64,000 nt of DNA from Candidatus Parcubacteria bacterium. GTDB lineage: Bacteria > Patescibacteriota > Minisyncoccia > UBA6257 > HR35. Below the pieces are notes generated by a model. That model was not told the origin of the DNA. It saw only the letters and a program-made list of their open reading frames with translations, and did not search any database. How positions within the stretch are numbered: position 1 is the stretch's first letter; the number at the start of each line of letters is the position of its first letter. Made by a program: the position numbers and the translations under genes. This document shows positions 3,841 to 45,799 of this stretch, piece by piece. The DNA is taken from contig BPJG01000001.1 of assembly GCA_026004495.1 (NCBI GenBank), positions 2,672 to 66,671 on the forward strand, written 5' to 3'.

Positions 3841-4250
3841 ATGGAAAAAGATCGTGTGTTTTGTAAAATAATTAAAAGAAAGAATGCTTCAAGGATTATT
3901 TACGAAGATAAAGATGTTATTTGTTTTTTGCCGAAAACAATTCATGTTATGGCCATACTTTAATTGTTCCTAAAAAGCATTATGAAAGTTTATATGATAT
4001 TCCCGAAAAAGATTTAATTGAACTTATTAAAACTTCTAAAAAATTAACCTTAGCTTACAAAAGAAAAATTAAAGCAACAGGAGTAAATTTACTTCACGCT
4101 AGTGGCAAAGACGCTCAACAATCTGTTTTCCATTTTCATCTCCATCTTTTCCCAAGATTTAAAAACGATAATTTAGATACTTGGCCTAAATTACCAAAAA
4201 TAAAAGTTGATCCAGATGAATTATTAAAAAAGCTAAAAATAGAAAGGTAA
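3841..4250 (+). CDS. HIT-family (histidine triad) hydrolase; frameshifted at a T6 run (~3926-3931) in this sequence (the ORF track shows only 3921..4250)
   Basis: N-terminal frame gives MEKDRVFCKIIKRKNASRIIYEDKDVICF. Downstream frame gives FAENNSCYGHTLIVPKKH ... HFHLHLFPR, which is the HxHxHxx triad. One extra T joins the two frames. Confidence 0.75.
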
Positions 4251-4253
4251 TCG

Positions 4254-4280
4254 AAAAGGGCGGGAAGGCCCGCCCTTTTT
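4254..4280. terminator. Bidirectional rho-independent terminator between convergent genes
   Basis: AAAAGGGCGGG-AAGG-CCCGCCCTTTTT: a 7-bp GC stem flanked by an A-tract and a T-tract, in an AT-rich background. Confidence 0.8.
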
Positions 4281-4362
4281 AAGTTTTTTATTTTCAATTT
4301 AGAAACTTAAATCAATTCCTGGGTTTTCGCCTGTTAGACCTGAACCACAATTTTTTCTATCA

Positions 4363-4602
4363 CTAACGAATTGCTCCATATTTGATTATTAGTTTTTTTA
4401 TATTCAACCCAAGCGCTTTTACTGCTTTGCGGAAATTTAACCAAGCATTTTGAACTGCCTTATTCCTTTCTTTGTTGTTTTCAATTGGCCAAGAATTGCT
4501 TAAGGCAATTTTTCTTTCTTCATAAGCTTTTCTTATTTTTGAGAAATAATTTTCTCTTGCAGTTTTTAAAGCATCTTCTCTTTTTTCAAGAGCATCTTTC
4601 AT
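4363..4602 (-). CDS. Small secreted protein. It probably extends upstream to an ATG at 4757-4759 (signal peptide plus Thr/Pro-rich linker) through a 1-nt homopolymer deficit.
   Basis: The same frame is open upstream of the annotated M with no ATG and reads LIISLPFFIVSLFGLAQEPTSTPTSTPISIPTSRPTTTPPEG. An adjacent frame gives 'ATG AAA AAC TTT' (MKNF). One extra T (an A on the plus strand at 4751-4754) yields a classic signal peptide. Confidence 0.45.
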   Translation of the reverse strand: MKDALEKREDALKTARENYFSKIRKAYEERKIALSNSWPIENNKERNKAVQNAWLNFRKAVKALGLNIKKLIIKYGAIR

Positions 4603-4837
4603 ACAAGCAAGATCTAATTTTTTAGGACCCTCTGGAGGTGTAGTGGTTGGTCTGCTTGTAGGAATCGATATGGGTGTTGAAGTTGGTGTTGAAGTTGGTT
4701 CTTGAGCTAAACCAAATAGAGAAACGATAAAAAATGGTAAAGAGATTATTAAAAGTTTTTCATTTTACTTTTATTGTTTAATTACGATCATTTTCTTTGT
4801 TAAAATTATATACTAATTTTGCTCTTAATTTCTAAAA

Positions 4838-5320
4838 ATGAATAATAATTTTTTTGCTATTTTGCATAATATTCGAAGCACTTATAATGTTGGAGCAATT
4901 TTTAGAACTGCTGATGCCGTAGGAATTGATAAATTATATTTGACTGGTTATACGCCAACTCCAGCTAAAGATAAAAAAATTGAAAAAACTGCGTTGGGCG
5001 CTGAAAAATATGTTACCTGGGAATATTATCAAAATATTAGTTATCTTTTGAAAAAATTAAAAAAAGAAAGTTTTCAAATTGTTGCCTTAGAACAAAACGA
5101 AAAAAGCATTCCTTATTATCAATTCAAACCTAAATTTCCTTTAGTTTTGATCGTTGGTAACGAAGTTAAAGGTTTAAATAAAAAAATTCTTAATTACGCC
5201 GATTATATTATTGAAATTCCAATGTTTGGCAAAAAAGAATCATTAAATGTTGCTGTTGCTTTTGGAATTGTTGTTTATTATTTAAAATTTTACAAATATA
5301 CGGGGATGGGGTATAATTAG
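4838..5320 (+). CDS. SpoU/TrmH-family RNA 2'-O-methyltransferase
   Basis: SPOUT motifs: LHNIRSTYNVGAIFRTADAVGI ... LVLIVGNEVKGL ... IPMFGKKESLNVAVAFGIVVY. Confidence 0.8.
   Translation: MNNNFFAILHNIRSTYNVGAIFRTADAVGIDKLYLTGYTPTPAKDKKIEKTALGAEKYVTWEYYQNISYLLKKLKKESFQIVALEQNEKSIPYYQFKPKFPLVLIVGNEVKGLNKKILNYADYIIEIPMFGKKESLNVAVAFGIVVYYLKFYKYTGMGYN
5289..5320 (+). promoter_or_regulatory. Sigma70-type promoter TTTACA-N17-TATAAT with a CsoR/RcnR-type operator (TATAC-G4-AT-G4-TATA) in the spacer. It is embedded in the 3' end of the trmH-like coding sequence.
   Basis: The 32-bp block is almost identical to 9814..9846 upstream of csoR. It lies immediately upstream of the copper ATPase. Confidence 0.7.
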
Positions 5321-5326
5321 TATGAA

Positions 5327-7552
5327 ATGAAAAAATATATTTGTCCAATGGGATGTGTTAGTCCCCAAAATGAGCCTGGTGGTAATTGTCCTGTTTGTGG
5401 AATGCGACTTGTTGAGGTGGAAGAAAAACATAGAATAAGCAGAACTGACGCAGAACATACAGAACATATTAATATTGTTCGCATTGGTTCGCGTATAGTT
5501 CGCATCAGTTCGCGTTTTAAAAGAAAAGAATATAACGAGCATTTTGACAAACATCATGGACATCGAGCCGAAGATTTTCTTAAAAAATTTTGGCTTTGTT
5601 TAATTTTAACTATTTTTGTTATTTTTCTTTCTTTTGATTTTTTAAACCTAAATTTTTTTAGTCTACGTGAGTTTACATTTAGTCTGTTAAAGTCTGCGCT
5701 AGTTTTAATTTTTTCTTCAATTGTTTTCTTTTATGGTGGTTGGGTTTTTCTTGTTGGCGCTTATAGAGAAATCAAGAGCAAAAATCCAGGGATGATGACT
5801 TTAATTTCTTTAGCCATAACCTCAGCTTATGTTTATAGTGTGGTTTTAATGATACTTAATGTTGTTCGCATGAGTTTGCGGGTAAGTTCGCAAGAGTTCG
5901 CGGAAGTTGGTTTTTTCTGGGAACTTACTTCCTTAATTACGATTATGCTTTTAGGTCATTATTTTGAAATGAAATCAGTTTCTTCAGCTCAAAGAGCTTT
6001 GCAAGAAATAGAAAAATTATTGCCTGATACAGCTGAATTAGAAAGCGGTAAAATAATTCCTTTAAATGAATTAAAAGTTGATGATATTGTTTTAGTTCGG
6101 CCTGGAGGGAAAATTCCAGCTGATGGAGTTGTTGTTGAAGGTAAATCAGAAGTTAATGAAAGTATGATAACTGGTGAAAGCAGACCTATTTTAAAAGAAG
6201 TTGGTTCTGAAGTTATTACTGGGACAATTAATGGTGATGGAATCTTAAAAATCAAAGTAACTAAAATTGGTGAAGAAACATTTTTAGCTGGAATAAAAAG
6301 ATTAATTCAAGAAGCACAAAAATCCAAATCTAAACTTCAAGTTTTGGCTGATGTTTTTGCTAAATATTTAACTTTTATTGCTCTTGGAGTTGGTTCTTTA
6401 AGTTTTGTAATTTGGCTTTCGCTTCAAAAAGATTTTGCTTTTGTTTTAGAAAGATTAGTTACAGTTTTAGTTATTGCTTGCCCTCATGCTTTAGGCCTTG
6501 CTGTTCCTTTAGTTGTTGCTATTTCTACATCTTTAGCAATTCATAATGGTTTTTTAATCCGTAATAGTTTGCAATTAGAATTAGCCCGAAAAGTCGATGT
6601 TGTTCTCTTTGATAAAACCGGAACATTGACTAGCGGTAAATTTGTTGTAAAAGAGATTAAAAAATTAAATGATATTTCAGAGGAAAAAATTCTTCAAATT
6701 GCCGGCTCTTTGAATCAATATTCTCAACATTTTATTGCTCAAGGTATTTTAAGAAAAGTAAAGGAGCAAAGTATATCACTTTTACCTGTAAATGATTTCG
6801 AAAATTTAACTGGCCGAGGAGTTAAGGGTATAGTTGATGGTCAAATTTACTATCTAGGTGGTGATAATTTATTAAAAGAATTAAATTTAAAAGCACCAGA
6901 AATAGAAGGTGTTGGTACCATTGTTTATTTAATTGATGAGGGTAAAAATATTTTAGGAGCAATCATTTTAGAAGATGAAATAAGAAAAGAAGTAAAAGAA
7001 GCAGTTAAAGAGCTTCATCAACTTGGTATTAAAGTTTTGATGGTCACTGGAGATAAAAAAGAAGTTGCTGAAAAAGTTGCTAAAGAATTAGGAATTGATG
7101 AATATTTTGCTGAAGTTTTACCACAAGAAAAAGTTGAAAAAGTAAAAGAACTTCAACAGAAAGGATTAAAAGTAATGTTTGTTGGTGATGGAATTAATGA
7201 TGCTCCAGCTTTAATGCAAGCAGATGTTGGAGTTGTTATTGGCGCTGGAACGAATGTTGCCATTGAATCAGCAGGAATAATTTTAGTTAGAAATGACCCT
7301 CGAGATATTGTTAAATTAATAAAACTTTCAAAATTAACTTATCGCAAAATGATTGAAAATTTATTTTGGGCAACTGGCTATAATGTTGTTATGATTCCTC
7401 TTGCAGCAGGAATTTTCGAAATATTTAAAATGATTTTTTCTTTACCGGGTAGTGAATTTATTCTAATACCTGGGCCAGCAATTGGATCAATTTTAATGAG
7501 TCTATCCACAATCATTGTTAGTTTAAATGCTTTAAGAATGAGGAAGATATAA
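5327..7552 (+). CDS. copB: Heavy-metal (copper) translocating P1B-type ATPase
   Basis: N-terminal CPMGC...CPVCG metal-binding/zinc-ribbon-like motif and a His-rich stretch. CPH in TM6, DKTGTLT phosphorylation site and the GDGINDAPAL hinge. The copB versus copA assignment is tentative and rests on CPH plus the His-rich N-terminus. Confidence 0.85.
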   Translation: MKKYICPMGCVSPQNEPGGNCPVCGMRLVEVEEKHRISRTDAEHTEHINIVRIGSRIVRISSRFKRKEYNEHFDKHHGHRAEDFLKKFWLCLILTIFVIFLSFDFLNLNFFSLREFTFSLLKSALVLIFSSIVFFYGGWVFLVGAYREIKSKNPGMMTLISLAITSAYVYSVVLMILNVVRMSLRVSSQEFAEVGFFWELTSLITIMLLGHYFEMKSVSSAQRALQEIEKLLPDTAELESGKIIPLNELKVDDIVLVRPGGKIPADGVVVEGKSEVNESMITGESRPILKEVGSEVITGTINGDGILKIKVTKIGEETFLAGIKRLIQEAQKSKSKLQVLADVFAKYLTFIALGVGSLSFVIWLSLQKDFAFVLERLVTVLVIACPHALGLAVPLVVAISTSLAIHNGFLIRNSLQLELARKVDVVLFDKTGTLTSGKFVVKEIKKLNDISEEKILQIAGSLNQYSQHFIAQGILRKVKEQSISLLPVNDFENLTGRGVKGIVDGQIYYLGGDNLLKELNLKAPEIEGVGTIVYLIDEGKNILGAIILEDEIRKEVKEAVKELHQLGIKVLMVTGDKKEVAEKVAKELGIDEYFAEVLPQEKVEKVKELQQKGLKVMFVGDGINDAPALMQADVGVVIGAGTNVAIESAGIILVRNDPRDIVKLIKLSKLTYRKMIENLFWATGYNVVMIPLAAGIFEIFKMIFSLPGSEFILIPGPAIGSILMSLSTIIVSLNALRMRKI
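5438..5517. repeat. Intragenic GC-rich tandem-repeat mini-element: degenerate (CAGAAC)x3 followed by (GTTCGCnnn)x4, in-frame in the ATPase N-terminus
   Basis: ...cagaactgacgcagaacatacagaacat...gttcgcattggttcgcgtatagttcgcatcagttcgcg. Homologous to the element at 17918..18004. Confidence 0.8.
5862..5903. repeat. Second intragenic (GTTnGCnnn)x4 repeat inside the ATPase, between membrane segments
   Basis: gttcgcatgagtttgcgggtaagttcgcaagagttcgcg. Encodes VVRMSLRVSSQEFAE. Confidence 0.7.
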
Positions 7553-7555
7553 AAT
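7514..7555. repeat. 42-bp direct repeat, copy 1 (3' end of the ATPase gene including its stop codon)
   Basis: attgttagtttaaatgctttaagaatgaggaagatataaaat. Repeated at 8291..8332 with one mismatch. Confidence 0.85.
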
Positions 7556-7571
7556 AGTATATAATTAAGTT

Positions 7572-7883
7572 ATGGTAGAAGACATATCAAAACCAGATAG
7601 AGATAAAAAAGCAGAAGATTTAAGAAAGTTAGGATTTTCTAAGGAAGAAGCTATTAAATATTTATCAGCCAAATTTACATTAGAGACTTTAAAACAAAAA
7701 ATTAATTCTTTACAATCAGCTGGTTTTTCTAATCCTGTTAAATTAATAGAGGAACATCCTCAAATTGCTGGCCTTGATATTACTCGTGTTAAAATGAGAT
7801 TAAAATTAATTGATAGATTAAATAGAAAATTCAATCTTAATTATGATCCATATTCAATAGTAGAAAAATTCCACAATATTTAG
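7572..7883 (+). CDS. Hypothetical protein (inside the 735-bp segment bounded by the 42-bp direct repeats)
   Basis: ORF only. No recognisable motif. Confidence 0.4.
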   Translation: MVEDISKPDRDKKAEDLRKLGFSKEEAIKYLSAKFTLETLKQKINSLQSAGFSNPVKLIEEHPQIAGLDITRVKMRLKLIDRLNRKFNLNYDPYSIVEKFHNI

Positions 7884-7913
7884 GATATGATTTAGCGAGA
7901 ATCTTTTTTTTGT

Positions 7914-8280
7914 TTGAGAATAGCTGCCTATTTTAATTTTGATGAAGCAAGATATAGAGGTCTAATAAAAACGAATTCACACTTGTTGTTTGATGAGCTT
8001 ATTAGAAAAACAAGACAAAAAATAAGTCAAGCAGGAGAATTGCCTCAGACAGTAGAATTGTACCAAGGAGATATGTTGAATATACTAAGAGCTATAAGAA
8101 ACTAACAAAAGAAGAAAAAAAGCAAAGAATTGAAGAAACTAAACAAAATTTACCTCAATTAAAAGATGAAATAAACAAATTACCTGATTCAAATTTAAAA
8201 AAATTACTCCTCAAACTTTTAAGATATCTTGAACGATTAAAAAGCAAAGAACAAGTTAGAGAACAAAGAAGACAAAAATA
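7914..8280 (+). CDS. Hypothetical protein, split in this sequence. Frame 0 (7914..8105) continues in frame 2 (8090..8280); one extra A in 'gaaac' (8097-8101) fuses them (~122 aa).
   Basis: Overlapping open frames with no start codon in the second. The continuous read would be ...LNILRAIRKLTKEEKKQRIEETKQ... Confidence 0.4.
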
Positions 8281-8290
8281 AATGTTAATA

Positions 8291-8332
8291 ATTGTTAGTT
8301 TAAATGTTTTAAGAATGAGGAAGATATAAAAT
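8291..8332. repeat. 42-bp direct repeat, copy 2 (relic 3' end of the ATPase gene)
   Basis: attgttagtttaaatgttttaagaatgaggaagatataaaat. Would encode IVSLNVLRMRKI*. Confidence 0.85.
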
Positions 8333-8333
8333 T

Positions 8334-9584
8334 TTATAAACCAACTTCGTGGGGTAATTGATTTAAAATAAATTCTTTTGGTTTTTCAGTAAAAATAATT
8401 ATTTTTCCTAAAGAATGAGCATAGCCGATTTCCAGAAGATCATAAGCACCTACATAACCATTTGGATCGCAAACTATTAAAGCATCAGAATTTTCAATTG
8501 AATCTAAATGATATCTTTCAAGTTCTAATGGACTCAAATTCTCTTCGCCGGTAAAAATAACAAACTCTTCTCCCGGATTTTTGGGTTCCTCAAATCTAGG
8601 ACTTAAAATATGGACCCCATTATTTTCTAATTCTTTTTTAATCTTTAAAATATAATCTAAATGTTTTCTAAAACTCCCACTTATTGTAACATATCTAAAT
8701 TCTTGTCTAATTACACCATTTATTAAATTTGAATCAGAAGGAATAATTATTTGAATATTATATTTTTCACAGATTGCTTGAGCTAAAGCAGAAAAAGGTC
8801 TGGCTCCATGCATCCATTTAGGATTTTCCGGCATCATATTTTCTAATTCTTCTAACTTTATTTTTTCAAAAACTTCTTTATTCTTTAATTTATAATCTTC
8901 AAAAGATATTAGATAAGGATGATCCTCGTCGTCAAATAAATTATTTTTCTTAAGAGGATAATTCGCTACTTTCATATAAGTCAATTCACCTCCGCTAAGA
9001 AAAGCAATTTTTGGCTTATTTTCTATAGGAGGCAAAATCTCTTTAAATTGTTCTATCAACTCTTCTATTTTAATTTCCGATGTGCTTTTATTAATCTCAG
9101 GAAATTCATTTAAAATTTTTCCAACTCCTAATTCTATATTTTTTCTTTCTATAGCTTCTTCACCATACATAACTACAAGCTCAGTAGTGCCTCCTCCGAT
9201 ATTTACCAAAAGTAAAGGTTCATTTAAATTGCACTTACCTACCAATGCTTTCTCTAAGTAAAAATTTTCTAATTCATGAGAAATAATATTAAAATAAAGT
9301 CCTGTTTTTAAAAATATTTCATCAATAAAATTTCTTTTAGTTTTTGAAGCTAAATTTCTAAATATACCAGTGGTATAAATTTTTATTTTAGCATCATGAT
9401 TGCTTTCTTTGATTGAATATAGAAGCTCTAAAAGTTCTCTTTTGTTGTTTTCAGAAATACCTCCTTCAGGATCAAAGCCATCTTTAAAAAATATAGTCCT
9501 TTGAAGTAATTGCTCTAACTTATTTTCTTCATATTTATAAACTTTTATTGTCGATGAGCCTATGTCTAATAGAATTTTTTTCAT
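8334..9584 (-). CDS. Ppx/GppA-family (ASKHA fold) phosphatase-like protein with a C-terminal nucleoside 2-deoxyribosyltransferase-like domain
   Basis: N-terminal LLDIGSSTIKVY and LLVNIGGGTTELVV resemble the Ppx/GppA phosphate-binding loops. C-terminal ...DALIVCDPNGYVGAYDLLEIGYAHSLGKIIIF resembles the NDT/YtoQ-like fold. The C-terminal assignment is low confidence. Confidence 0.45.
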   Translation of the reverse strand: MKKILLDIGSSTIKVYKYEENKLEQLLQRTIFFKDGFDPEGGISENNKRELLELLYSIKESNHDAKIKIYTTGIFRNLASKTKRNFIDEIFLKTGLYFNIISHELENFYLEKALVGKCNLNEPLLLVNIGGGTTELVVMYGEEAIERKNIELGVGKILNEFPEINKSTSEIKIEELIEQFKEILPPIENKPKIAFLSGGELTYMKVANYPLKKNNLFDDEDHPYLISFEDYKLKNKEVFEKIKLEELENMMPENPKWMHGARPFSALAQAICEKYNIQIIIPSDSNLINGVIRQEFRYVTISGSFRKHLDYILKIKKELENNGVHILSPRFEEPKNPGEEFVIFTGEENLSPLELERYHLDSIENSDALIVCDPNGYVGAYDLLEIGYAHSLGKIIIFTEKPKEFILNQLPHEVGL

Positions 9585-9813
9585 CTTTATGTTTATTTTA
9601 AATTAGAAATTTTAAACTAAACTAAACTAAAATAAACTTATAATATCAAGTTATTTTCTATATTTTTTGCTTTCAATTTACAATTTTCCCACAAAGTCTG
9701 AAATTTTAATTAAAATTTATTATAATTTTGATAATTTTATTTCTTAAAAAATTAAAATTAGTTTCTAAAATTTATCACTTCGATGCTAAAAGAATTTTTG
9801 ATGAATTAAATAT

Positions 9814-9846
9814 TTGACAAATATACGGGGATGGGGTATAATTAAG
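9814..9846 (+). promoter_or_regulatory. Sigma70-type promoter TTGACA-N17-TATAAT with the CsoR/RcnR-type operator (TATAC-G4-AT-G4-TATA) in the spacer, upstream of csoR
   Basis: Consensus -35 and -10 boxes with 17-bp spacing. Same 23-bp core as at 5297..5319. Confidence 0.75.
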
Positions 9847-9855
9847 AAAAAGAAA

Positions 9856-10125
9856 ATGAACAAAGAATTAAAAAATAGAGTTTTAAGAAGATTGAATATA
9901 ATTAAGGGGCAGGTTGATGGTTTAAGGAATATGATTGAAAATGATAAATATTGCATTGATATTTTAATTCAGTCAATGGCAATTAAAAATGCTTTGTCAG
10001 GGATTGAAGACTTAATTTTAGAAAATCATCTAAAAACTCATGTTAAAGAACAATTTAAAACCAAAAAAGAAAAAGTCGCAGTTAAAGAATTAGTAAAAAT
10101 TTATAAATTAGCAAAAAGAAAATGA
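9856..10125 (+). CDS. csoR: CsoR/RcnR-family metal-sensing transcriptional repressor (DUF156). The true start is MNKELK at 9856; the longer ORF in the track reads through the operator.
   Basis: RLNIIKGQVDGLRNMIENDKYCIDILIQSMAIKNALSGIEDLILENHLKTH: the CsoR W-X-Y-Z region with Cys and His ligand positions. Confidence 0.8.
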   Translation: MNKELKNRVLRRLNIIKGQVDGLRNMIENDKYCIDILIQSMAIKNALSGIEDLILENHLKTHVKEQFKTKKEKVAVKELVKIYKLAKRK

Positions 10126-10757
10126 ATAAACACAAATTGCAACGAATATATTACGAATGGCAACAAATAATTAAGATATTATTTTTAAGTTTTTTAATTC
10201 TCTTTTCTTTAAATTTTACTTTTGCTCACACTGAAGATGCTGAACTTAATACTGAAATTCAAAAGGGTAGAGAATTGGTTGAGAAATTTTATCGCGGTGA
10301 AATTAAATGCCAAGATTTAACCAATGAAGATTTTCATTCAGTTGGTGAATATGTAATGGAGCAGATGGTTGGTGGGAGTGATCATTTAACAATGAATAAA
10401 ATGATTGAACAAATGCATGGCAAAGAAGGAGAAGAATTGATGCATATTAATATGGGGAAAAGATTTTTAGGTTGTGAAACGCTAACATCTTCGAATTCTA
10501 GGCGAACTAATGCAAACAACTTCTTTATGATGCCGATGCATATGTGGGGTTCAAATTTTCCAATGATGGGTTATTGGCAAGGATGGTGGAATTTTACTAA
10601 TTGGAGAGGTTGGAATGTTTTAGTACCGATTTTTGGAATTTTAAGCTTTTTATGGCTTTTGATAATTTTATCTTTTCCAGTTTTAGTGTTAATTTTGCTT
10701 GTTTTGAGCATAGTTTATTTGATTAAAAAGTTAAGAAACGAAATTAAAAAAGAATAA
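10122..10757 (+). CDS. Met/His-rich membrane-anchored protein, putative copper-binding. A degenerate copy of the CGCAGAC element lies at ~10494-10520.
   Basis: Signal/TM segment, M/H-rich motifs (MMPMHMWGSNFPMMGYWQGWW) and a C-terminal TM. ATGA overlap with csoR. Confidence 0.5.
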   Translation: MNKHKLQRIYYEWQQIIKILFLSFLILFSLNFTFAHTEDAELNTEIQKGRELVEKFYRGEIKCQDLTNEDFHSVGEYVMEQMVGGSDHLTMNKMIEQMHGKEGEELMHINMGKRFLGCETLTSSNSRRTNANNFFMMPMHMWGSNFPMMGYWQGWWNFTNWRGWNVLVPIFGILSFLWLLIILSFPVLVLILLVLSIVYLIKKLRNEIKKE

Positions 10758-10758
10758 A

Positions 10759-11847
10759 ATGGTTAAAATAATTAAGAACGAGGATAAAGATTATTATCAA
10801 TGTGAAGAATGTCAATATTTTTATGAAAATGAAGTACTAGCAAAAGAATGTGAAGATTGGTGTCAAAAATATAAAAGTTGTAATTTAGAAATTATAAAAC
10901 AAGCAGTCAAATTGCAAAATAATGAAGAAAACGAAAACAATCTTAATGAAAATAATTTAAAACAAAAGCTTAACTTAAAACAACTTTTAATTGGTATTTT
11001 GATTGGAGTATCAGTTATTTTTATTTTGACTAATTTTACTTTCGTAAAAATACCTAAAACTAGTTCTAATAACTCAATTAATAATCAATTAATTCAGCAA
11101 ATTATTGCCCAGGTTTTGCCTCAAGAAGGATTTAAAACAAGAATAGTTTTTGGTGATGCAGTTAAAAAAATGATTGATTGTGGAGTGATTGATTTAGAAA
11201 AAATGACAAAATTATATAATGGTAAGGTTCCTGAGTATATACAAAAATTGATAGAAGGCTCAAATGAGCCAATTGTTATCAATCAAGAAACTGCTAATTA
11301 TCTTTTAAATTTATTTTGGCCCTTAGGACTTTCAAATAAAACTGAATTTAATAAAAATATTCCTTTTTCAGAAAAAGATCTACCTCATTTAGCTTCAACT
11401 GGTGGTTGGTGGTTAGGTAAAAAAGAGAATGGTGCTGAATATTTTAATAAATGTGAAATTATAAAATTAACACCTCAGCAAGAAGAAATTGTTTATCGAG
11501 TCGCTCAAAATACTTTTCGTCCGTGTTGTGATAATTCAACATTCGCTCAAGATTGTAATCATGGTTCAGCCTTACTCGGTGCTTTAGAATTGGCTGCTTC
11601 TCAAGGTTATTCAGAAGATGAGCTTTATAAATTAGCATTACAGCTTAATTCATTTTGGTTTCCTCAAAATTACATAAAAATTGCTTTATATAAAAAATTA
11701 GTTGAAGGCAAAGACTGGCAAAATGTTGATCCAAAAGAAATTATGTCAGCTAAGTTTTCATCAATTTCAGGTTATATTCAAAATGTTGAGAAAAAATTAG
11801 CTAATGTACCAAACATTCCTTCAACTGGCGCAGGATGTGGATTGTGA
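10759..11847 (+). CDS. Hypothetical membrane-anchored protein with an N-terminal CxxC..CxxC zinc ribbon
   Basis: YYQCEECQ...CEDWCQ, one TM segment and a large extracytoplasmic domain ending GAGCGL. Confidence 0.4.
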   Translation: MVKIIKNEDKDYYQCEECQYFYENEVLAKECEDWCQKYKSCNLEIIKQAVKLQNNEENENNLNENNLKQKLNLKQLLIGILIGVSVIFILTNFTFVKIPKTSSNNSINNQLIQQIIAQVLPQEGFKTRIVFGDAVKKMIDCGVIDLEKMTKLYNGKVPEYIQKLIEGSNEPIVINQETANYLLNLFWPLGLSNKTEFNKNIPFSEKDLPHLASTGGWWLGKKENGAEYFNKCEIIKLTPQQEEIVYRVAQNTFRPCCDNSTFAQDCNHGSALLGALELAASQGYSEDELYKLALQLNSFWFPQNYIKIALYKKLVEGKDWQNVDPKEIMSAKFSSISGYIQNVEKKLANVPNIPSTGAGCGL

Positions 11848-12449
11848 AAAATTTTAAATTTATACTAATAAGTCTTCTAGGGATTTCGATTTTATTTAAT
11901 GGCTATTTGTTTTATCAAAAAATTAATTTAGATAAAAAGGTTTCTGAAATTCAAAAATATTTGTTGGATTTAGGCAGGCTCTCAGGAATTGATAATTATG
12001 GGTCGACACACATTCATGCAGATATCAAAATCTATTTAAATGGCGAAGAATTAAATTTATATAGTCCAGAAAATTTTGAAAAAAATCAATTTGTTCATTT
12101 TCATGAAACTAAAGATAAAACAAAACCTAATGATAATGTTATCCATATTCACGCTAAAGGCATAACTTTAAAACACTTTTTTAAATCTTTGGGAATTGAA
12201 TTAGAAAAAAATTGCTTCACTTATAATTTAAAAAGATATTGTAATGATGGTAAAAACACATTAAAGATATATGTTAACGGAAAGAGAATAGATAATTATG
12301 CAGATTATGAAATTAAAGACTTAGATAAAATATTAGTAAGTTATGGTTCAGAAAATGAAAAAGAAATTCAAAAACAAATTAATTCAGTCGGTAATAATTC
12401 AAAATTTCACAGCACCAAATTTAATTTTGAGTGCGGTGATGGATGCTAA
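11835..12449 (+). CDS. Hypothetical secreted/membrane-anchored protein with His-rich motifs (HIHADIK, FVHFHETK, IHIHAKG) and a C-terminal CGDGC
   Basis: N-terminal TM/signal segment and His-rich putative metal-binding motifs. In the operon with csoR. Confidence 0.4.
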   Translation: MWIVKNFKFILISLLGISILFNGYLFYQKINLDKKVSEIQKYLLDLGRLSGIDNYGSTHIHADIKIYLNGEELNLYSPENFEKNQFVHFHETKDKTKPNDNVIHIHAKGITLKHFFKSLGIELEKNCFTYNLKRYCNDGKNTLKIYVNGKRIDNYADYEIKDLDKILVSYGSENEKEIQKQINSVGNNSKFHSTKFNFECGDGC

Positions 12450-12931
12450 AAATGAAAAAGAATAATCTCTGGCTTTTAATTGGAATAATCTTGGGCGCTA
12501 TTTTGATTTTGTTAATTTCAAACAATTTGTCGTTAAAACCTTCAAATAAATTTTCAGGGATTAAAGCAAAAGTTTATTATCAAGAAAATTGTGGTTGTTG
12601 TAAAGAATATATTGACTATTTGAGAAGGAATGGATTTAATATAGAGACGCAGGTTATGAGTTTGGAAGAGTTAGATAGGAATAAAAAAGAGCTAAAAATT
12701 CCGGAAAGTTTGTACGCTTGCCACACAGTTTTAATCGGGGATTATTTTATTGAAGGCCATATTCCAATTGAAGCAATTCAAAAGCTTTTAACTGAAAAAC
12801 CAGACATTAATGGAATTGCTTTACCAGGAATGCCTTCAGGATCACCAGGAATGCCAGGCTTTAAAATCTATCCCTTCAAAATTCATTCAGTCAAAAATGG
12901 AGAAGATAAAGGAATATTTATGGAGATATGA
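12443..12931 (+). CDS. DUF411-family periplasmic metal (copper) resistance-associated protein
   Basis: Signal peptide, then the CGCCKEYIDYLRRNGFNIE motif (the CxCC motif of DUF411). Confidence 0.65.
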   Translation: MLKMKKNNLWLLIGIILGAILILLISNNLSLKPSNKFSGIKAKVYYQENCGCCKEYIDYLRRNGFNIETQVMSLEELDRNKKELKIPESLYACHTVLIGDYFIEGHIPIEAIQKLLTEKPDINGIALPGMPSGSPGMPGFKIYPFKIHSVKNGEDKGIFMEI

Positions 12932-12987
12932 ACGCAGACCTATGCGGACTACACGCAGACTTTCGCAGACAATAATAAATCGCAGAC
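12931..12987. repeat. (nnACGCAGAC)-type tandem-repeat mini-element, 5 units, immediately 3' of the DUF411 stop
   Basis: aacgcagacctatgcggactacacgcagactttcgcagacaataataaatcgcagac. Confidence 0.75.
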
Positions 12988-13270
12988 TAGTGGAGAAATT
13001 ATATTTGAAAATTTAATTAACGAAAAATGAAAATTGTTTTTTTATTAATTATAACAATTTTACCATTTTTTGCTTTTGCTCATTGTCCGTTGCGTACTTT
13101 ATCTTGATCTTATTTACTTTAAAACAAAGTCCCCAATCAACACTTCAAAAACTTCTTGAATGCTGTAAAAATTGGTAAAATTTAATTAATGATATAGATA
13201 TTCGCGATCTTAGTCTTTTAATTTTTAGTAATTAGAGTATTTTTTAATAACTTAAAAAAGAACAGAAAGA

Positions 13271-14434
13271 ATGAACAAAAAGAAAATCTTAGGAGTGAAT
13301 AAGAATGTTTTTTATTTAAGTTTAGTGAGTTTGTTTAATGATTTTTCAAGCGAGATGGTTTATTCAATTATGCCTGTTTTTTTAACCAGAGTTTTAGGTG
13401 CGCCAATTTGGTTTGTTGGTTTTTTAGAAGGATTTGCCGAGGCTTTAAATAATATTTTAAAAATTTTTTCAGGCAGATTAGCAGATTATCTCAATCGACG
13501 AAAAATTTTAGCAGTTTTTGGTTATTCAATTTCAACTTTGACAAGATTTTTTCTTTATTTAGTTAATAATTTTTGGCAAATTTTGGTTTTAAGAGTTTTA
13601 GATAGAGTAGGTAAGGGCCTGCGTGATGCTCCTAGAGATGCTTTAATTTATTTATTTTCAGAAAAAGAACAATTAAATAAATTATATAATTTTCATCGAG
13701 CCTTTGATACAATTGGAGCAATCTTAGGACCAATTGTTGGTTTTATTCTTTTAAATTATTTTCTTCAATTAAATTATAGATTATTATTTTTAATTGCTTC
13801 ACTTTTAGGCTTTTTAACAATTTTAACTTTTATTTTTGTTGAAGATAAAAAAGAAAATTATTCAAAAAATAAAAAATTTATTTTCAGTTTAAAAATTTTT
13901 CCAGCCAACTTAAAACTTTATTTAATTTCATTCTTTTTATTTTCTCTAGGCTATTTTCCTCTTTCATTTACTCTTTTAAGAATTCAAACAATTGATTCAA
14001 GTTTAAAAACATTACCACTTTTTTATTTTATCTTTAATTTCTTCTTTGTTATTTTTGCTTTCCCAATTGGTAAATTGGCTGATAAATATGGAGAAAGATT
14101 AATGTTAAAACTCGGATTTATTTTTGCTATTTTATCTTTTTTGATTTTTTCAATCCCTAATAATCTTTTAATTTTTCCAGCAATTGTTTTGCTTTCTTTA
14201 AGTTTAGCTTTGATTGATGGAATTAAAGTGGTTTATCTAGGTAAAAATATTGCTCAAGAATATTTGGCTACAGCTCAGGGTACTTTAAATTCTCTATATG
14301 GCTTTGGCCAACTTTTTGGCGGTTTAATTGGTGGCTTGATTTGGACAAAATTAAACTTTACTTATGCTTTTATTTATGGATGTTTTTTAATTCTAATGTC
14401 ATTAATATTAATTGATCTTGCTCTGAGAAAATAA
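13271..14434 (+). CDS. MFS-family transporter
   Basis: About 12 predicted TM segments and an MFS-like loop motif (LDRVGKGLRDAPRDALI). Confidence 0.7.
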   Translation: MNKKKILGVNKNVFYLSLVSLFNDFSSEMVYSIMPVFLTRVLGAPIWFVGFLEGFAEALNNILKIFSGRLADYLNRRKILAVFGYSISTLTRFFLYLVNNFWQILVLRVLDRVGKGLRDAPRDALIYLFSEKEQLNKLYNFHRAFDTIGAILGPIVGFILLNYFLQLNYRLLFLIASLLGFLTILTFIFVEDKKENYSKNKKFIFSLKIFPANLKLYLISFFLFSLGYFPLSFTLLRIQTIDSSLKTLPLFYFIFNFFFVIFAFPIGKLADKYGERLMLKLGFIFAILSFLIFSIPNNLLIFPAIVLLSLSLALIDGIKVVYLGKNIAQEYLATAQGTLNSLYGFGQLFGGLIGGLIWTKLNFTYAFIYGCFLILMSLILIDLALRK

Positions 14435-44845: not shown

Positions 44846-45799
44846 ATGATATATATTATTTTAATTTCAGCTATAATAGGTTGTTATATTACTTATCATA
44901 TATATTCACACAAATATAAGAAAAAACCTTTAGTTTGCCCCTTAAAAGCTAAATGTGACCCAGTTATTCACAGTGAGTATTCTAAATTTTTAGGAATTGA
45001 AAATACAATTTTAGGTTTTACTTATTATGTTTTTATTTTAATTTTTCATTTATTATTTCTTATTTTTAAATTTAATAATTATTTCTTAGAATTTTTTGTT
45101 TTCAATTTATCACTTTTAGCTGTATTTTTTTCAATTTATTTAACATTTATTCAACTTTTTAAATTAAAAAAGTTTTGTAGTTGGTGTCTTTTATCTGCTT
45201 TATTATGTTTTTTGATTTTTATTAATTCATATTTAATTTATAAAGATACAATAATTAAAGCAGCAATTCAATTACAAAAATTAAGTATTTTTATTCATGC
45301 TTTAACTTCTGGAATTGCTTTAGGAATTGTTTCTGTAGTTGATTATCTGTTTTTTAAATTTCTAAAAGATAAAAAGATTGACGAAAAAGAAAAATCAATT
45401 TTAGATAATTTATCAGATTTTATTTGGTTAATTTTAGGATTAATTATTGTTTCTGGTGTTTTTATTTATTTGTCTGATATGGATAAATATCATAATTCTG
45501 TTAAGTTTATGCTTAAAATGATAATTGTCTTGATTATTGTTATTAATGGATTTTTAATGAATTTAATTGTTTCACCTAAATTAATTGAATTTGACTTTCA
45601 AAAATTAAACAATTTAAAAGAGAGAATTTTTATTTCGATGGGAGTTATTTCTATCACATCTTGGTTATTAGCTTTTATTTTAGGTAGATTAAAAACTATT
45701 CCCCTTAGTTTAATCGAGGCCTTAGGTTTATATTTATTGTTCTTAATAATAACTATAATTAGCAGTATTTTTTTTATTAAATTAAAATTGAAAAATTAA
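44846..45799 (+). CDS. Vitamin K epoxide reductase (VKOR)-family membrane protein with a C-terminal extension
   Basis: Cys pair in the first loop (CPLKAKCDP) and CSWC in TM4. Confidence 0.6.
   Translation: MIYIILISAIIGCYITYHIYSHKYKKKPLVCPLKAKCDPVIHSEYSKFLGIENTILGFTYYVFILIFHLLFLIFKFNNYFLEFFVFNLSLLAVFFSIYLTFIQLFKLKKFCSWCLLSALLCFLIFINSYLIYKDTIIKAAIQLQKLSIFIHALTSGIALGIVSVVDYLFFKFLKDKKIDEKEKSILDNLSDFIWLILGLIIVSGVFIYLSDMDKYHNSVKFMLKMIIVLIIVINGFLMNLIVSPKLIEFDFQKLNNLKERIFISMGVISITSWLLAFILGRLKTIPLSLIEALGLYLLFLIITIISSIFFIKLKLKN

Follow-up and report, generated by a model that had tools for sequence, protein, structure and literature searches.

Two Promoters Predicted to Place Copper Resistance under CsoR Repression in a Hot-Spring Member of the Parcubacteria

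The 64-kb stretch of DNA analysed here (hereafter, the window) belongs to a hot-spring member of the Parcubacteria (Patescibacteria) and, judging from sequence comparison, very probably carries a small copper-resistance regulon with two promoters under CsoR repression. An earlier sequence-only reading of this DNA had put forward a CsoR-family operator within the promoters of both a copper ATPase gene and a csoR operon. Comparison with relatives strongly supports it at both predicted sites, the headline evidence being a PF02583 gene, a TIGR01511 ATPase, and a site found in 31/31 csoR loci as well as before ATPase genes.

Promoter Blocks

The two promoters share an exact 28-bp repeat (ACAAATATACGGGGATGGGGTATAATTA; 5292–5319 and 9817–9844), which is part of a fuller 40-nt repeat of 93% identity (5280–5319 vs. 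9805–9844). Within the window (G+C content of 25.5%), the 28-mer has these two matches alone with up to three mismatches allowed and none in 100 dinucleotide shuffles, and its 19-mer core gave the same outcome (two matches, none in the shuffles). The near-identical promoter blocks of the sequence-only reading are thus real and were correctly located, with end positions 1–2 nt off (copy 1 reads ttttacaaatATACGGGGATGGGGTATaatta at 5288–5319, and copy 2 reads ttgacaaatATACGGGGATGGGGTATaatta at 9814–9844). A repeat or mobile-element origin of the 28-mer was dropped, as it occurs no more than twice, each time at a promoter position conserved among orthologous loci. Using a promoter scan, we found the two near-consensus blocks to be the top two sigma-70 matches in the region 4500–13,500, with TTTACA-17-TATAAT in the copB promoter (5289–5317) and TTGACA-17-TATAAT in the csoR promoter (9814–9842; Table 1).

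Table 1. Coordinates of the promoter elements, predicted operators, and genes in the window.
Feature	Coordinates	Strand	Remarks
SpoU/TrmH-family RNA methylase gene	4838..5320	+	Pfam PF00588, E 3.5e-37
-35 hexamer TTTACA, copB promoter	5289..5294	+	scan 11/12, 17-bp spacer
Operator 1 (predicted), ATAC-GGGGATGGG-GTAT	5298..5314	+	TAC-N9-GTA dyad
-10 hexamer TATAAT, copB promoter	5312..5317	+	first 3 nt within operator right arm
copB-like copper P1B-type ATPase	5327..7552	+	Pfam E1-E2_ATPase, Hydrolase, HMBD; TIGR01511
-35 hexamer TTGACA, csoR promoter	9814..9819	+	scan 12/12, 17-bp spacer
Operator 2 (predicted), ATAC-GGGGATGGG-GTAT	9823..9839	+	identical to operator 1
-10 hexamer TATAAT, csoR promoter	9837..9842	+	promoter scan
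csoR, CsoR/RcnR-family repressor, 89 aa	9856..10125	+	Pfam PF02583
Met- and His-rich membrane protein, 211 aa	10122..10757	+	start overlaps csoR stop by 4 nt
Cys-rich protein, 362 aa, conserved operon member	10759..11847	+	weak DUF7128-like N-terminus
204-aa protein, function unassigned	11835..12449	+	overlaps genes on both sides
DUF411 (CopG-type) protein, last operon gene	12443..12931	+	Pfam PF04214, E 6.9e-24

Each block contains a 17-bp dyad, the last three nucleotides of which (TAT) are also the start of the -10 hexamer; the operator had been placed exactly in the 17-bp spacer, which needs correcting to this extent. When the window was scanned for additional sites, as the sequence-only reading had proposed, GGGGNNGGGG and ATAC-N9-GTAT were found at the two promoters and nowhere else, and the two operators were also the only G/C-rich occurrences of TAC-N9-GTA. 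The strict TAC-N9-GTA search returned one extra match, composed of A/T only, at 45273. A relaxed scan of the 64 kb (up to two mismatches in ATAC/GTAT, at least six G/C in N9) returned chance intragenic, non-promoter matches alone, and there is no third site in the window. The start codon of copB follows the -10 box by 9 nt, and its mRNA is probably leaderless or nearly so. For csoR, the gap is 13 nt in the window vs. 6 nt in HR35, so the csoR mRNA of the window may not be strictly leaderless.

Operator Class

By published definitions, a type 2 (CsoR) operator is a TAC-N9-GTA with two short G/C tracts 2–4 bases apart and ~11 bp between AT-rich repeats, while a type 1 (RcnR) site has TACT/AGTA arms and a single unbroken G/C tract of 3–8 bp, its AT-rich repeats lying 6–9 bp apart (PMC3902906). 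The operators in the window read ATA-C-GGGG-AT-GGGG-TAT, with the TAC-N9-GTA inverted repeat (TAC at 5299–5301 and GTA at 5311–5313 in operator 1; TAC at 9824–9826 and GTA at 9836–9838 in operator 2), two G/C tracts of 4 nt each with 2 nt in between, and 11 bp from the ATA to the TAT repeat. The frame is type 2 and not type 1 by these definitions, as AT interrupts the tract, the repeats are 11 bp apart, and the arms read ATAC/GTAT. The sites had been matched to RcnR/CsoR type 1 sites, an assignment we revise. The RcnR site given for that match (TACT-G6-N-AGTA) agrees with PMC3902906, and what is reminiscent of type 1 here is the same-strand polarity of both G runs and nothing more.

The TAC-X9-GTA dyad is common to CsoR operators, and in Streptomyces lividans, binding is lost on swapping any dyad base, each site takes up two CsoR tetramers, and recognition of the G-tracts is by their shape (PMC3902906). 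Type 2 inner tracts are palindromic, with a C-tract on the left and a G-tract on the right; here, GGGG stands on the left, which breaks the palindrome in the inner part of the box. One G/C half with its G run on the other strand is the unusual point of an otherwise well-known circuit, and could lower the affinity or change the binding mode.

Genes under the Two Promoters

Upstream of copB lies the RNA methylase gene (PF00588 domain at residues 6–147 of 160), the last 10 codons and stop of which (5288–5320) traverse the copB promoter and operator. The first block does lie within the end of this trmH-like gene, as had been noted, with the coding sequence doubling as promoter and operator; the methylase tails that follow AFGIVxYxLK differ among relatives (FYKYTGMGYN in the window, and LGKYTG, LDKNTP, LKRLNI, or IK, each ending at the stop codon). 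On this comparison, the overlap is a non-conserved read-through tail and not constrained dual-use sequence.

The ATPase scored 566.9 bits against the copper P1B model TIGR01511 (cutoff 397) and contains an N-terminal HMBD, a CPH motif (VIACPHALGLAVP), and FDKTGTLT with the phosphorylation motif DKTGT. From the CPH motif, we take it to belong to the CopB-like subgroup. The linkage of csoR to a copper ATPase gene is kept in the related loci L081–L085 and L089.

The csoR gene heads a five-gene operon (9856–12931), the synteny of which is kept in L081–L089, with a multicopper oxidase added in L084. The Met- and His-rich protein had no Pfam or NCBIfam match, and a gene for a product of ~180–225 aa likewise follows csoR in L081–L089. 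The gene for the Cys-rich protein, which matched PF23447 below the cutoff (E 0.0024), is syntenic in the same loci. The 204-aa protein had no Pfam or NCBIfam family match, and the DUF411 gene is syntenic in all close relatives.

The CsoR Repressor

The csoR product matched PF02583 (Trns_repr_metal) over residues 6–82 of 89 with 86.1 bits (cutoff 22.8, E 2.1e-24), and in the PDB, it is closest to the CsoR structures 4m1p, 2hh7, and 3aai. We noted the CsoR ligand positions C33, H58, and H62 (x-C-H-H) and the second-shell residues Y32 and E78, with C33, H58, Y32, and E78 invariant in an alignment of 25 homologues. C33 and H58 are 25 residues apart, as are C36 and H61 in Mtb CsoR, and E78 lies 20 residues past H58, like E81 past H61 in Mtb, where the second shell is numbered Y35 and E81 (PMC11672702). 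The window protein and most relatives have His at position 62, in place of the Cys of the classical x-C-H-C motif; x-C-H-H is, however, the motif accepted for Thermus CsoR (PMC11672702), the structure of which (3aai) aligned HLKDHV with HLKTHV, with the same H-x3-H. A copper-efflux P1B ATPase gene lies nearby, the linkage looked for in Cu(I)-sensing CsoR, and tblastn found no second CsoR paralogue in the 64-kb window. The copper specificity of the protein is nonetheless not certain, because its Z ligand is His, which in Thermus CsoR is tied to relaxed metal selectivity.

A Ni/Co (RcnR-like) or broad-specificity sensor on a type-1-like G-tract site, with a regulon answering other metals, is accordingly the first alternative to weigh, and we consider it unlikely. 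The His at Z is that of the RcnR H-C-H-H set, but the N-terminal His of this set is absent (the N-terminus, MNKELKNRVL, has neither His nor Cys at the W position), and in the close relatives P0005 and P0011, H62 is replaced by Cys, giving the classical C-H-C. The G runs share a strand, as they do at type 1 sites, but the frame is TAC-N9-GTA with its AT-rich repeats 11 bp apart, and not TACT-G6-N-AGTA. Thermus CsoR, likewise with His at Z, reportedly answers several metals in vitro, as far as the account in PMC5057107 goes; the neighbours here are nevertheless of the copper type (a TIGR01511 ATPase with CPH and HMBD, DUF411, and the multicopper oxidase in L084), the CsoR second-shell Tyr and Glu are invariant, and the NCBIfam RcnR model gave 35.1 bits against a cutoff of 138.

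Conservation and Evolution of the Operator

A G/C-rich TAC-N9-GTA lies just upstream of csoR in all 31 Patescibacteria loci examined; a TTGACA-like -35 box precedes it, and it is usually fused to a -10 box of the form TATNNT. Secondary sites in other loci precede P1B ATPases. In 16/31 of the csoR loci, the ATG follows the -10 box after exactly 6 nt, which suggests a leaderless csoR mRNA.

The canonical palindrome ATACCCC-N-GGGGTAT is present at the csoR promoters of 24 more distant Patescibacteria. Closer to the window, the orthologous copB promoters have the same frame and carry ATACCCCATAGGGGTAT (L083), ATACGGGGTAGGGGTAT (L081), and ATACCTATAGGGGGTAT (L082), and the orthologous csoR promoters ATACGGGGATGGGGTAT (L083, L084, and L106), ATACCAGGATGGGGTAT (L082), and ATACCCGGATGGGGTAT (L085). 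The left tract forms a series of CCCC (L083 copB), CCGG (L085), CAGG (L082), and GGGG (the window, L081, and the csoR promoters of L083 and L084) within one clade, in which the repressors are 83–94% identical and the TAC/GTA arms and their spacing are constant. L083 has both the canonical box (copB) and the G-variant (csoR) on one contig, with a CsoR 88% identical to that of the window. In the survey of L001–L089, a left tract of no C and four G with a G-rich right tract was confined to the window's clade (L081, L083, and L084). We conclude that the box derives from the canonical palindrome, its left C-tract having turned into a G-tract. A metagenome scan for ATACGGGGNNGGGGTATAAT found a single close relative (L106); the same scan returned many ATAC-G10-TATAAT sites upstream of unrelated genes.

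The description of a duplicated promoter holds for the two near-identical copies and not for a duplication, given both positions are conserved in relatives. The N9 cores of the copB and csoR sites are identical (9/9) in this genome alone vs. 2–6/9 in relatives, and both promoter positions are ancestral and were homogenised in this genome, with no fresh duplication.

The broken palindrome also raises the possibility of two copies of a strong promoter in which the G-rich spacer is hitch-hiking or degenerating, with repressor binding absent or much weakened and expression constitutive. The left G4 tract would fit such decay, and the identity of the copies is what recent conversion would also give, but every relative has kept a G/C-rich site with its TAC/GTA arms 9 bp apart, while the flanks diverge. 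The G-variant, moreover, occurs in at least five separate contigs (the window, L081, L083, L084, and L106) and persists through further substitutions (AT to TA, GGGG to AGGG), an intact csoR under purifying selection lies directly downstream, and sites of the same G polarity adjoin PF02583 genes in unrelated organisms; we regard loss of repression as quite improbable. Another regulator (e.g., a MerR/CueR-type activator or CopY) or non-B DNA such as a G-quadruplex might be suspected from a G-rich dyad between -35 and -10 boxes, but is highly implausible, as the site accompanies csoR in 31/31 loci and fits the CsoR box established by experiment, a quadruplex is ruled out by two G-runs where four are needed, and MerR-type activation, judged on spacer length, is at odds with a spacer of 17 bp (optimal) where MerR-type promoters have 19–20 bp.

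Taking the G-variant as a functional CsoR operator, we tentatively view it as a possible natural "strand-swap" experiment. If CsoR binds both forms equally, this would show in vivo that it recognises the inner tracts by shape alone (as A-like G·C stacks), irrespective of base identity. Alternatively, the flip may tune the repression strength of the autoregulatory promoter, the change then reaching the copB promoter by conversion. No DNA-contact substitution tracking the flipped tract was visible by eye in the CsoR alignment (25 homologues).

Proposed Regulatory Circuit

The sequence features and family memberships are observed, as is where the box lies in relatives and how well it is conserved there; for binding, copper response, stoichiometry, and transcription start sites, we infer the following. 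The 17-bp CsoR box (ATAC-N9-GTAT) takes up the spacer and runs 3 nt into the -10 box. Without copper, apo-CsoR would bind the TAC/GTA dyad together with the inner G/C tracts and would block RNA polymerase; a pair of tetramers would probably sandwich the DNA, as in S. lividans. Cu(I) bound at C33/H58′/H62′ would lower DNA affinity, and both units would be transcribed: copB as the first, and the autoregulated csoR with the Met-rich, Cys-rich, unassigned, and DUF411 proteins as the second. Transcripts would probably start 0–7 nt before the ATG, making the mRNAs leaderless or nearly so. Over evolution, the left C-tract became a G-tract with the essential TAC/GTA arms, 9-bp spacing, and G/C richness retained, and the two boxes were homogenised to identity in this genome.

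In the regulon so predicted, one repressor would act through two operators on six target genes, of which three have no assigned family. It offers a clean, testable copper regulon in an uncultured Parcubacteria lineage with reduced genomes. The circuit of a CsoR box fused to a -10 box, usually with a leaderless csoR, appears widespread in Patescibacteria, and the flipped half-site and its intermediates provide natural operator variants for testing the shape-read-out model. Among the 10 listed of 17 papers that mention both, no dedicated CsoR study in Patescibacteria was evident from titles and abstract openings.

Comparison with Known Systems

A close parallel is found in the type 2 CsoR operators of S. 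lividans (csoR, copZA1, and copZA2; Tan, Vijgenboom and Worrall 2014, PMC3902906). As in the window, these have a TAC-N9-GTA dyad with flanking TA repeats and G/C tracts between the arms, and lie at the promoters of csoR and of a copper ATPase operon; a box in the promoter of csoR itself makes the repressor autoregulated. The helix alpha2 Gln is also conserved (Q39 in the window CsoR). In contrast to S. lividans, the left tract in the window is GGGG and not C-rich, with both G runs on one strand, and the window CsoR is shorter (89 aa), has a Z ligand of His instead of Cys, and reads RRLNI where S. lividans has RLXR.

In the csoR-cueA divergon of Bradyrhizobium liaoningense, the CsoR box likewise extends into the -10 element, and mapping showed a leaderless csoR mRNA (PMC5057107). 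One type of box-bearing promoter serves the ATPase gene and csoR in both systems. Bradyrhizobium, however, has a single bidirectional box between divergent genes where the window has two co-directional promoters 4.5 kb apart, and its box is palindromic (TATACCCnnnnnGGGTATA), unlike that of the window.

The CsoR of Thermus thermophilus HB8 was reportedly described by Sakamoto et al. in 2010. As far as the accounts in PMC5057107 and PMC11672702 extend, this protein (PDB 3aai) has the C-H-H ligands in common with the window CsoR, in an aligned HLK(T/D)HV, and the two share a thermophilic habitat and a link to copper ATPase genes. The similarity is distant (E 2.6e-10), and one paper credits Thermus CsoR with an additional N-terminal His5, which the window CsoR lacks. 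The partner ATPase in the window has CPH (CopB-like), in place of a CopA/CopZ pair.

For Escherichia coli RcnR, the type 1 site is said to go back to Iwig and Chivers in 2009. In the account that PMC3902906 gives of it, the site shares with the window an AT-rich inverted repeat, G runs on one strand, and a proposed shape read-out of an A-like G-tract. It differs, in that same account, in its single unbroken tract, its 6–9 bp between repeats, its TACT/AGTA arms, and its binding of one tetramer per site, with Ni/Co sensed via H-C-H-H. Apart from the flipped half-site, the circuit in the window is textbook, and an ordinary addition to a known system.

Promoters and Predicted Operators Upstream of copB and csoR

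A sigma-70 promoter scan of the region 4500-13500 returned the promoters of copB and csoR as its top two matches. Both lie in near-identical blocks, as the sequence-only reading had described, although its end coordinates were off by 1-2 nt. The exact common block is 28 bp (ACAAATATACGGGGATGGGGTATAATTA), within a longer repeat of 40 nt (93% identity). No third copy was found in the window (25.5% G+C) at up to three mismatches, nor in any of 100 dinucleotide-preserving shuffles; the 19-mer core likewise had no extra copies in the window and none in the shuffles. Both GGGGNNGGGG and ATAC-N9-GTAT were confined to the two blocks in the 64-kb window. The predicted operator sits in the 17-bp spacer, as had been proposed, but also runs three bases into the -10 box. 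The ATG codons of copB and csoR lie 9 nt and 13 nt past the -10 box, respectively, leaving no room for a normal leader at either gene; transcripts would be predicted to begin around 5323-5325 and 9849-9850.

Features of the copB-csoR region (window coordinates)
Feature	Position	Length	Remarks
SpoU-family methylase	4838-5320	160 aa	Pfam domain at residues 6-147
copB promoter	5289-5317		TTTACA-17-TATAAT, 11/12
Common block, first copy	5292-5319	28 bp
Operator 1	5298-5314		ATAC-N9-GTAT
copB, heavy-metal P1B ATPase	5327-7552 (+)		N-terminal HMBD; TIGR01511 (copper subfamily), 566.9 bits vs. cutoff 397
Small ORF between repeat copies	7572-7883	103 aa	Weak mTERF-like match
Small ORF between repeat copies	7914-8105	63 aa
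csoR promoter	9814-9842		TTGACA-17-TATAAT, 12/12
Common block, second copy	9817-9844	28 bp
Operator 2	9823-9839		ATAC-N9-GTAT
csoR, CsoR/RcnR-family repressor	9856-10125 (+)		PF02583, E 2e-24
Met/His-rich membrane protein		211 aa	csoR operon, no family
Cys-rich protein		362 aa	csoR operon; weak DUF7128-like zinc-ribbon N-terminus
204-aa protein		204 aa	csoR operon, no family

In translation, the ATPase carries a CPH motif within VIACPHALGLAVP. Downstream of csoR are four tightly packed or overlapping genes, encoding a Met-rich membrane protein, a Cys-rich protein, the 204-aa protein, and, last, a DUF411 protein. The three operon genes spanning 10122-12449 have no assigned family in Pfam or NCBIfam, close relatives carry genes of like size and position 3′ of csoR, and their products are candidate new copper-handling proteins. 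One relative (L084) has a multicopper oxidase as an extra operon member, and an HR35 relative (L082, 14612-16270) has a Cas12f/TnpB-like gene (RuvC_1 match and a faint Cas12f1-like_TNB match) a few kb downstream of the operon.

At 5322-5330, a mini-ORF of two codons (ATG AAA TGA) begins with an out-of-frame ATG 4 nt past the -10 box and runs into the copB start. In this place, L081 and L083 have in-frame ATGATG and L082 has ATGGTG; the second of the two codons is the counterpart of the window's copB start. Among the few further G/C clusters in the window is a G+C-rich hairpin followed by a T-run (4258-4285, GGGCGGGAAGGCCCGCCCTTTTT), probably a bidirectional terminator, located between the convergent genes 3921-4250 (+) and 4363-4602 (-).

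Conservation of the CsoR Box

GTDB species genomes were scanned with the CsoR alignment, giving at least 80 loci, and the Patescibacteria loci among them showed 44-62% CsoR protein identity. A G/C-rich TAC-N9-GTA box was present upstream of csoR in 31 of 31 loci (Patescibacteria, including close relatives). The Patescibacteria pattern comprises a TTGACA-like -35 box, ATACCCC-N2-3-GGGGTAT, a TATNNT -10 box merged with the right arm of the palindrome, and the ATG. Fusion of the box to the -10 element upstream of csoR was noted across the phylum (L001-L025, L082, and L089). Secondary boxes of the same form occur upstream of P1B ATPase genes in these and other loci. The conserved boxes thus support the earlier suggestion of CsoR-type control at both promoters, with binding and Cu(I) release as the inferred part. 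In 16 of the 31 loci, the ATG follows the -10 box at a distance of exactly 6 nt, as in leaderless mRNAs, and leaderless csoR transcripts appear, on this spacing, to be the rule in Patescibacteria.

The Regulator and Its Metal

Hot-spring Parcubacteria MAGs (KatS3mg095, HR35) encode the closest homologues (83-94% identity) of the 89-aa window CsoR. Across an alignment of 25 homologues, Y32, C33, H58, and E78 are invariant, and at position 62 most members have His, with Cys in P0005 of L085 and P0011 of L089, both close relatives. This toggle among CsoRs 74-83% identical to the window protein indicates that C-H-H and C-H-C are easily interconverted in the clade. The top PDB matches were the CsoR structures 4m1p, 2hh7, and 3aai, the last being Thermus CsoR, in which HLKDHV aligns with HLKTHV. 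Together with invariant C33/H58 and His62, this alignment points to the ligand motif x-C-H-H, known in this form from Thermus CsoR, a protein taken to sense Cu(I), possibly with relaxed selectivity (PMC11672702, PMC5057107). His at the third ligand position would also suit a Ni/Co or broad-metal sensor. We consider such a sensor quite improbable, as the N-terminal His expected of an RcnR-type H-C-H-H sensor is missing, the third ligand toggles between His and Cys among relatives, the neighbouring genes are copper-type, and the site has a type 2 frame.

A single MAG (GCA_026004515.1) holds three csoR-copB modules on three contigs (L081, L083, L084), which differ in their operator variants and encode CsoRs sharing 84-94% identity with the window protein; the modules are either true paralogues or the product of a bin with mixed strains. 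Within the L084 ATPase (964 aa) is a PDDEXK_3 domain match, a region that may be an inserted element.

The G-Variant and Related Operators

The left inner tract of the window boxes is GGGG, whereas the family norm is a C-tract. Contigs of close relatives, retrieved as those encoding near CsoR homologues, display a graded series in which the arms, spacing, right-hand G-tract, and TATAAT fusion are constant.

Promoter boxes and methylase C-terminal tails (residues before the stop codon) in the window and related contigs
Locus	csoR box	copB box	Methylase tail
L085	ATACCCGGATGGGGTAT	ATACCCCATATGGGTAT	IK
L082 (HR35)	ATACCAGGATGGGGTAT	ATACCTATAGGGGGTAT	LKRLNI
L083	ATACGGGGATGGGGTAT	ATACCCCATAGGGGTAT (canonical)	LDKNTP
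L084	ATACGGGGATGGGGTAT	ATACCACCTAGGGGTAT
L081	ATACGGGGATAGGGTAT	ATACGGGGTAGGGGTAT	LGKYTG
L106 (metagenome contig)	ATACGGGGATGGGGTAT
Window	ATACGGGGATGGGGTAT	G-variant	FYKYTGMGYN

When every TAC-N9-GTA site in L001-L089 was surveyed, only the window's clade combined a G-rich right tract with a left tract containing four G and lacking C. The N9 cores of the copB and csoR boxes are identical (9/9) in the window only, compared to 2-6/9 in relatives, indicating that both promoter positions are ancestral and were homogenised in the window lineage, rather than freshly duplicated. An exact-pattern metagenome scan found ATAC-G4-NN-G4-TATAAT in unrelated, higher-GC organisms beside PF02583 genes, an HMA protein with a copper ATPase, and an ArsP-type permease; the G polarity of the left tract is not unique in nature.

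It is very unlikely that these are constitutive promoters with a decayed box, given that arms and spacing are conserved and the variant persists in at least five contigs. Control by a different regulator, or a non-B DNA structure, is extremely unlikely, considering the 17-bp spacer, the presence of two G runs only, and the strict co-occurrence of the box with csoR.

Separately, many unrelated metagenome contigs of 36-49% G+C (L092, L095-L098, L101, L103, L105, L108, L112, L113) carry consensus-like promoters with ATAC-G10-TATAAT, preceding genes for secreted proteins, lipoproteins, or unrelated proteins, with no CsoR-family gene in view on those contigs.

Gene Overlap and Rearrangements

The -35 box of copB starts at methylase codon 151, and codons 154-160 hold the operator and -10 box. 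Beyond the conserved ...AFGIVxYxLK, methylase tails vary between the window and four relatives; the TAG at the operator centre serves as stop codon in L081 and L083. The coding sequence does overlap promoter and operator, as had been noted, but the shared stretch is not under double constraint, the reading frame in this compact genome simply running on into the promoter.

A 52-nt direct repeat (7510-7561 and 8287-8338, 92% identity) comprises the copB 3′ end including the stop codon, with the second copy 777 bp downstream, adjoining the end of a minus-strand Ppx/GppA-like gene. As only 5 nt separate copB from the Ppx gene in L081, the window has a ~0.78-kb insertion flanked by the duplicated gene end; the insert had no match among the fetched loci. 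In L085 (7880-7960, 4960-5020), an exact second copB 3′ end is joined directly to the csoR -35 box (...aggataaagaaagTTTGACAaaaATACCCGG...), and L082 (4170-4250) has a degenerate csoR promoter copy (tatTTGACAaaaATACTAGGATTAAG) directly 3′ of copB. These two arrangements suggest ancestral copB-csoR contiguity, later broken by insertions, with the ancestral copB stop codon probably in or beside the csoR -35 box.

Proposed Mechanism and Comparison with Known Systems

As predicted from sequence, the two sites are most probably a pair of CsoR-controlled promoters, correctly spotted, ordinary and of a kind already known. We propose that apo-CsoR would cover both promoters from -29 to -13, including the initial three bases of the -10 box, and exclude RNA polymerase; Cu(I) at C33/H58/H62 would release it, yielding the CPH-type ATPase and the products of the autoregulated csoR operon. 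In Bradyrhizobium, the CsoR box also overlaps the -10 box, and csoR was mapped as leaderless (PMC5057107). TAC-X9-GTA is common to CsoR operators (Tan et al., PMC3902906), and in S. lividans, where two tetramers bind per site, swapping any TAC/GTA arm base abolished binding (PMC3902906).

Type 1 operators have one unbroken G/C tract (3-8 bp) and AT-rich repeats spaced 6-9 bp apart, whereas type 2 operators have two shorter tracts 2-4 bases apart, with ~11 bp between repeats (PMC3902906). The sequence-only reading gave the RcnR site (TACT-G6-N-AGTA), the published type 1 example, correctly, but it was the wrong comparison: ATA-C-GGGG-AT-GGGG-TAT has the type 2 frame, follows the TAC-N9-GTA rule, and departs from the type 1 definition, its sole type 1-like trait being that both G runs are on one strand. 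The flipped half-site and the forms intermediate to it are a minor curiosity, mainly for CsoR specialists. The apparent tolerance of the C-to-G flip would fit the shape read-out that Tan et al. propose for the inner tracts, as the A-like propensity of a G·C stack does not depend on which strand has the G.
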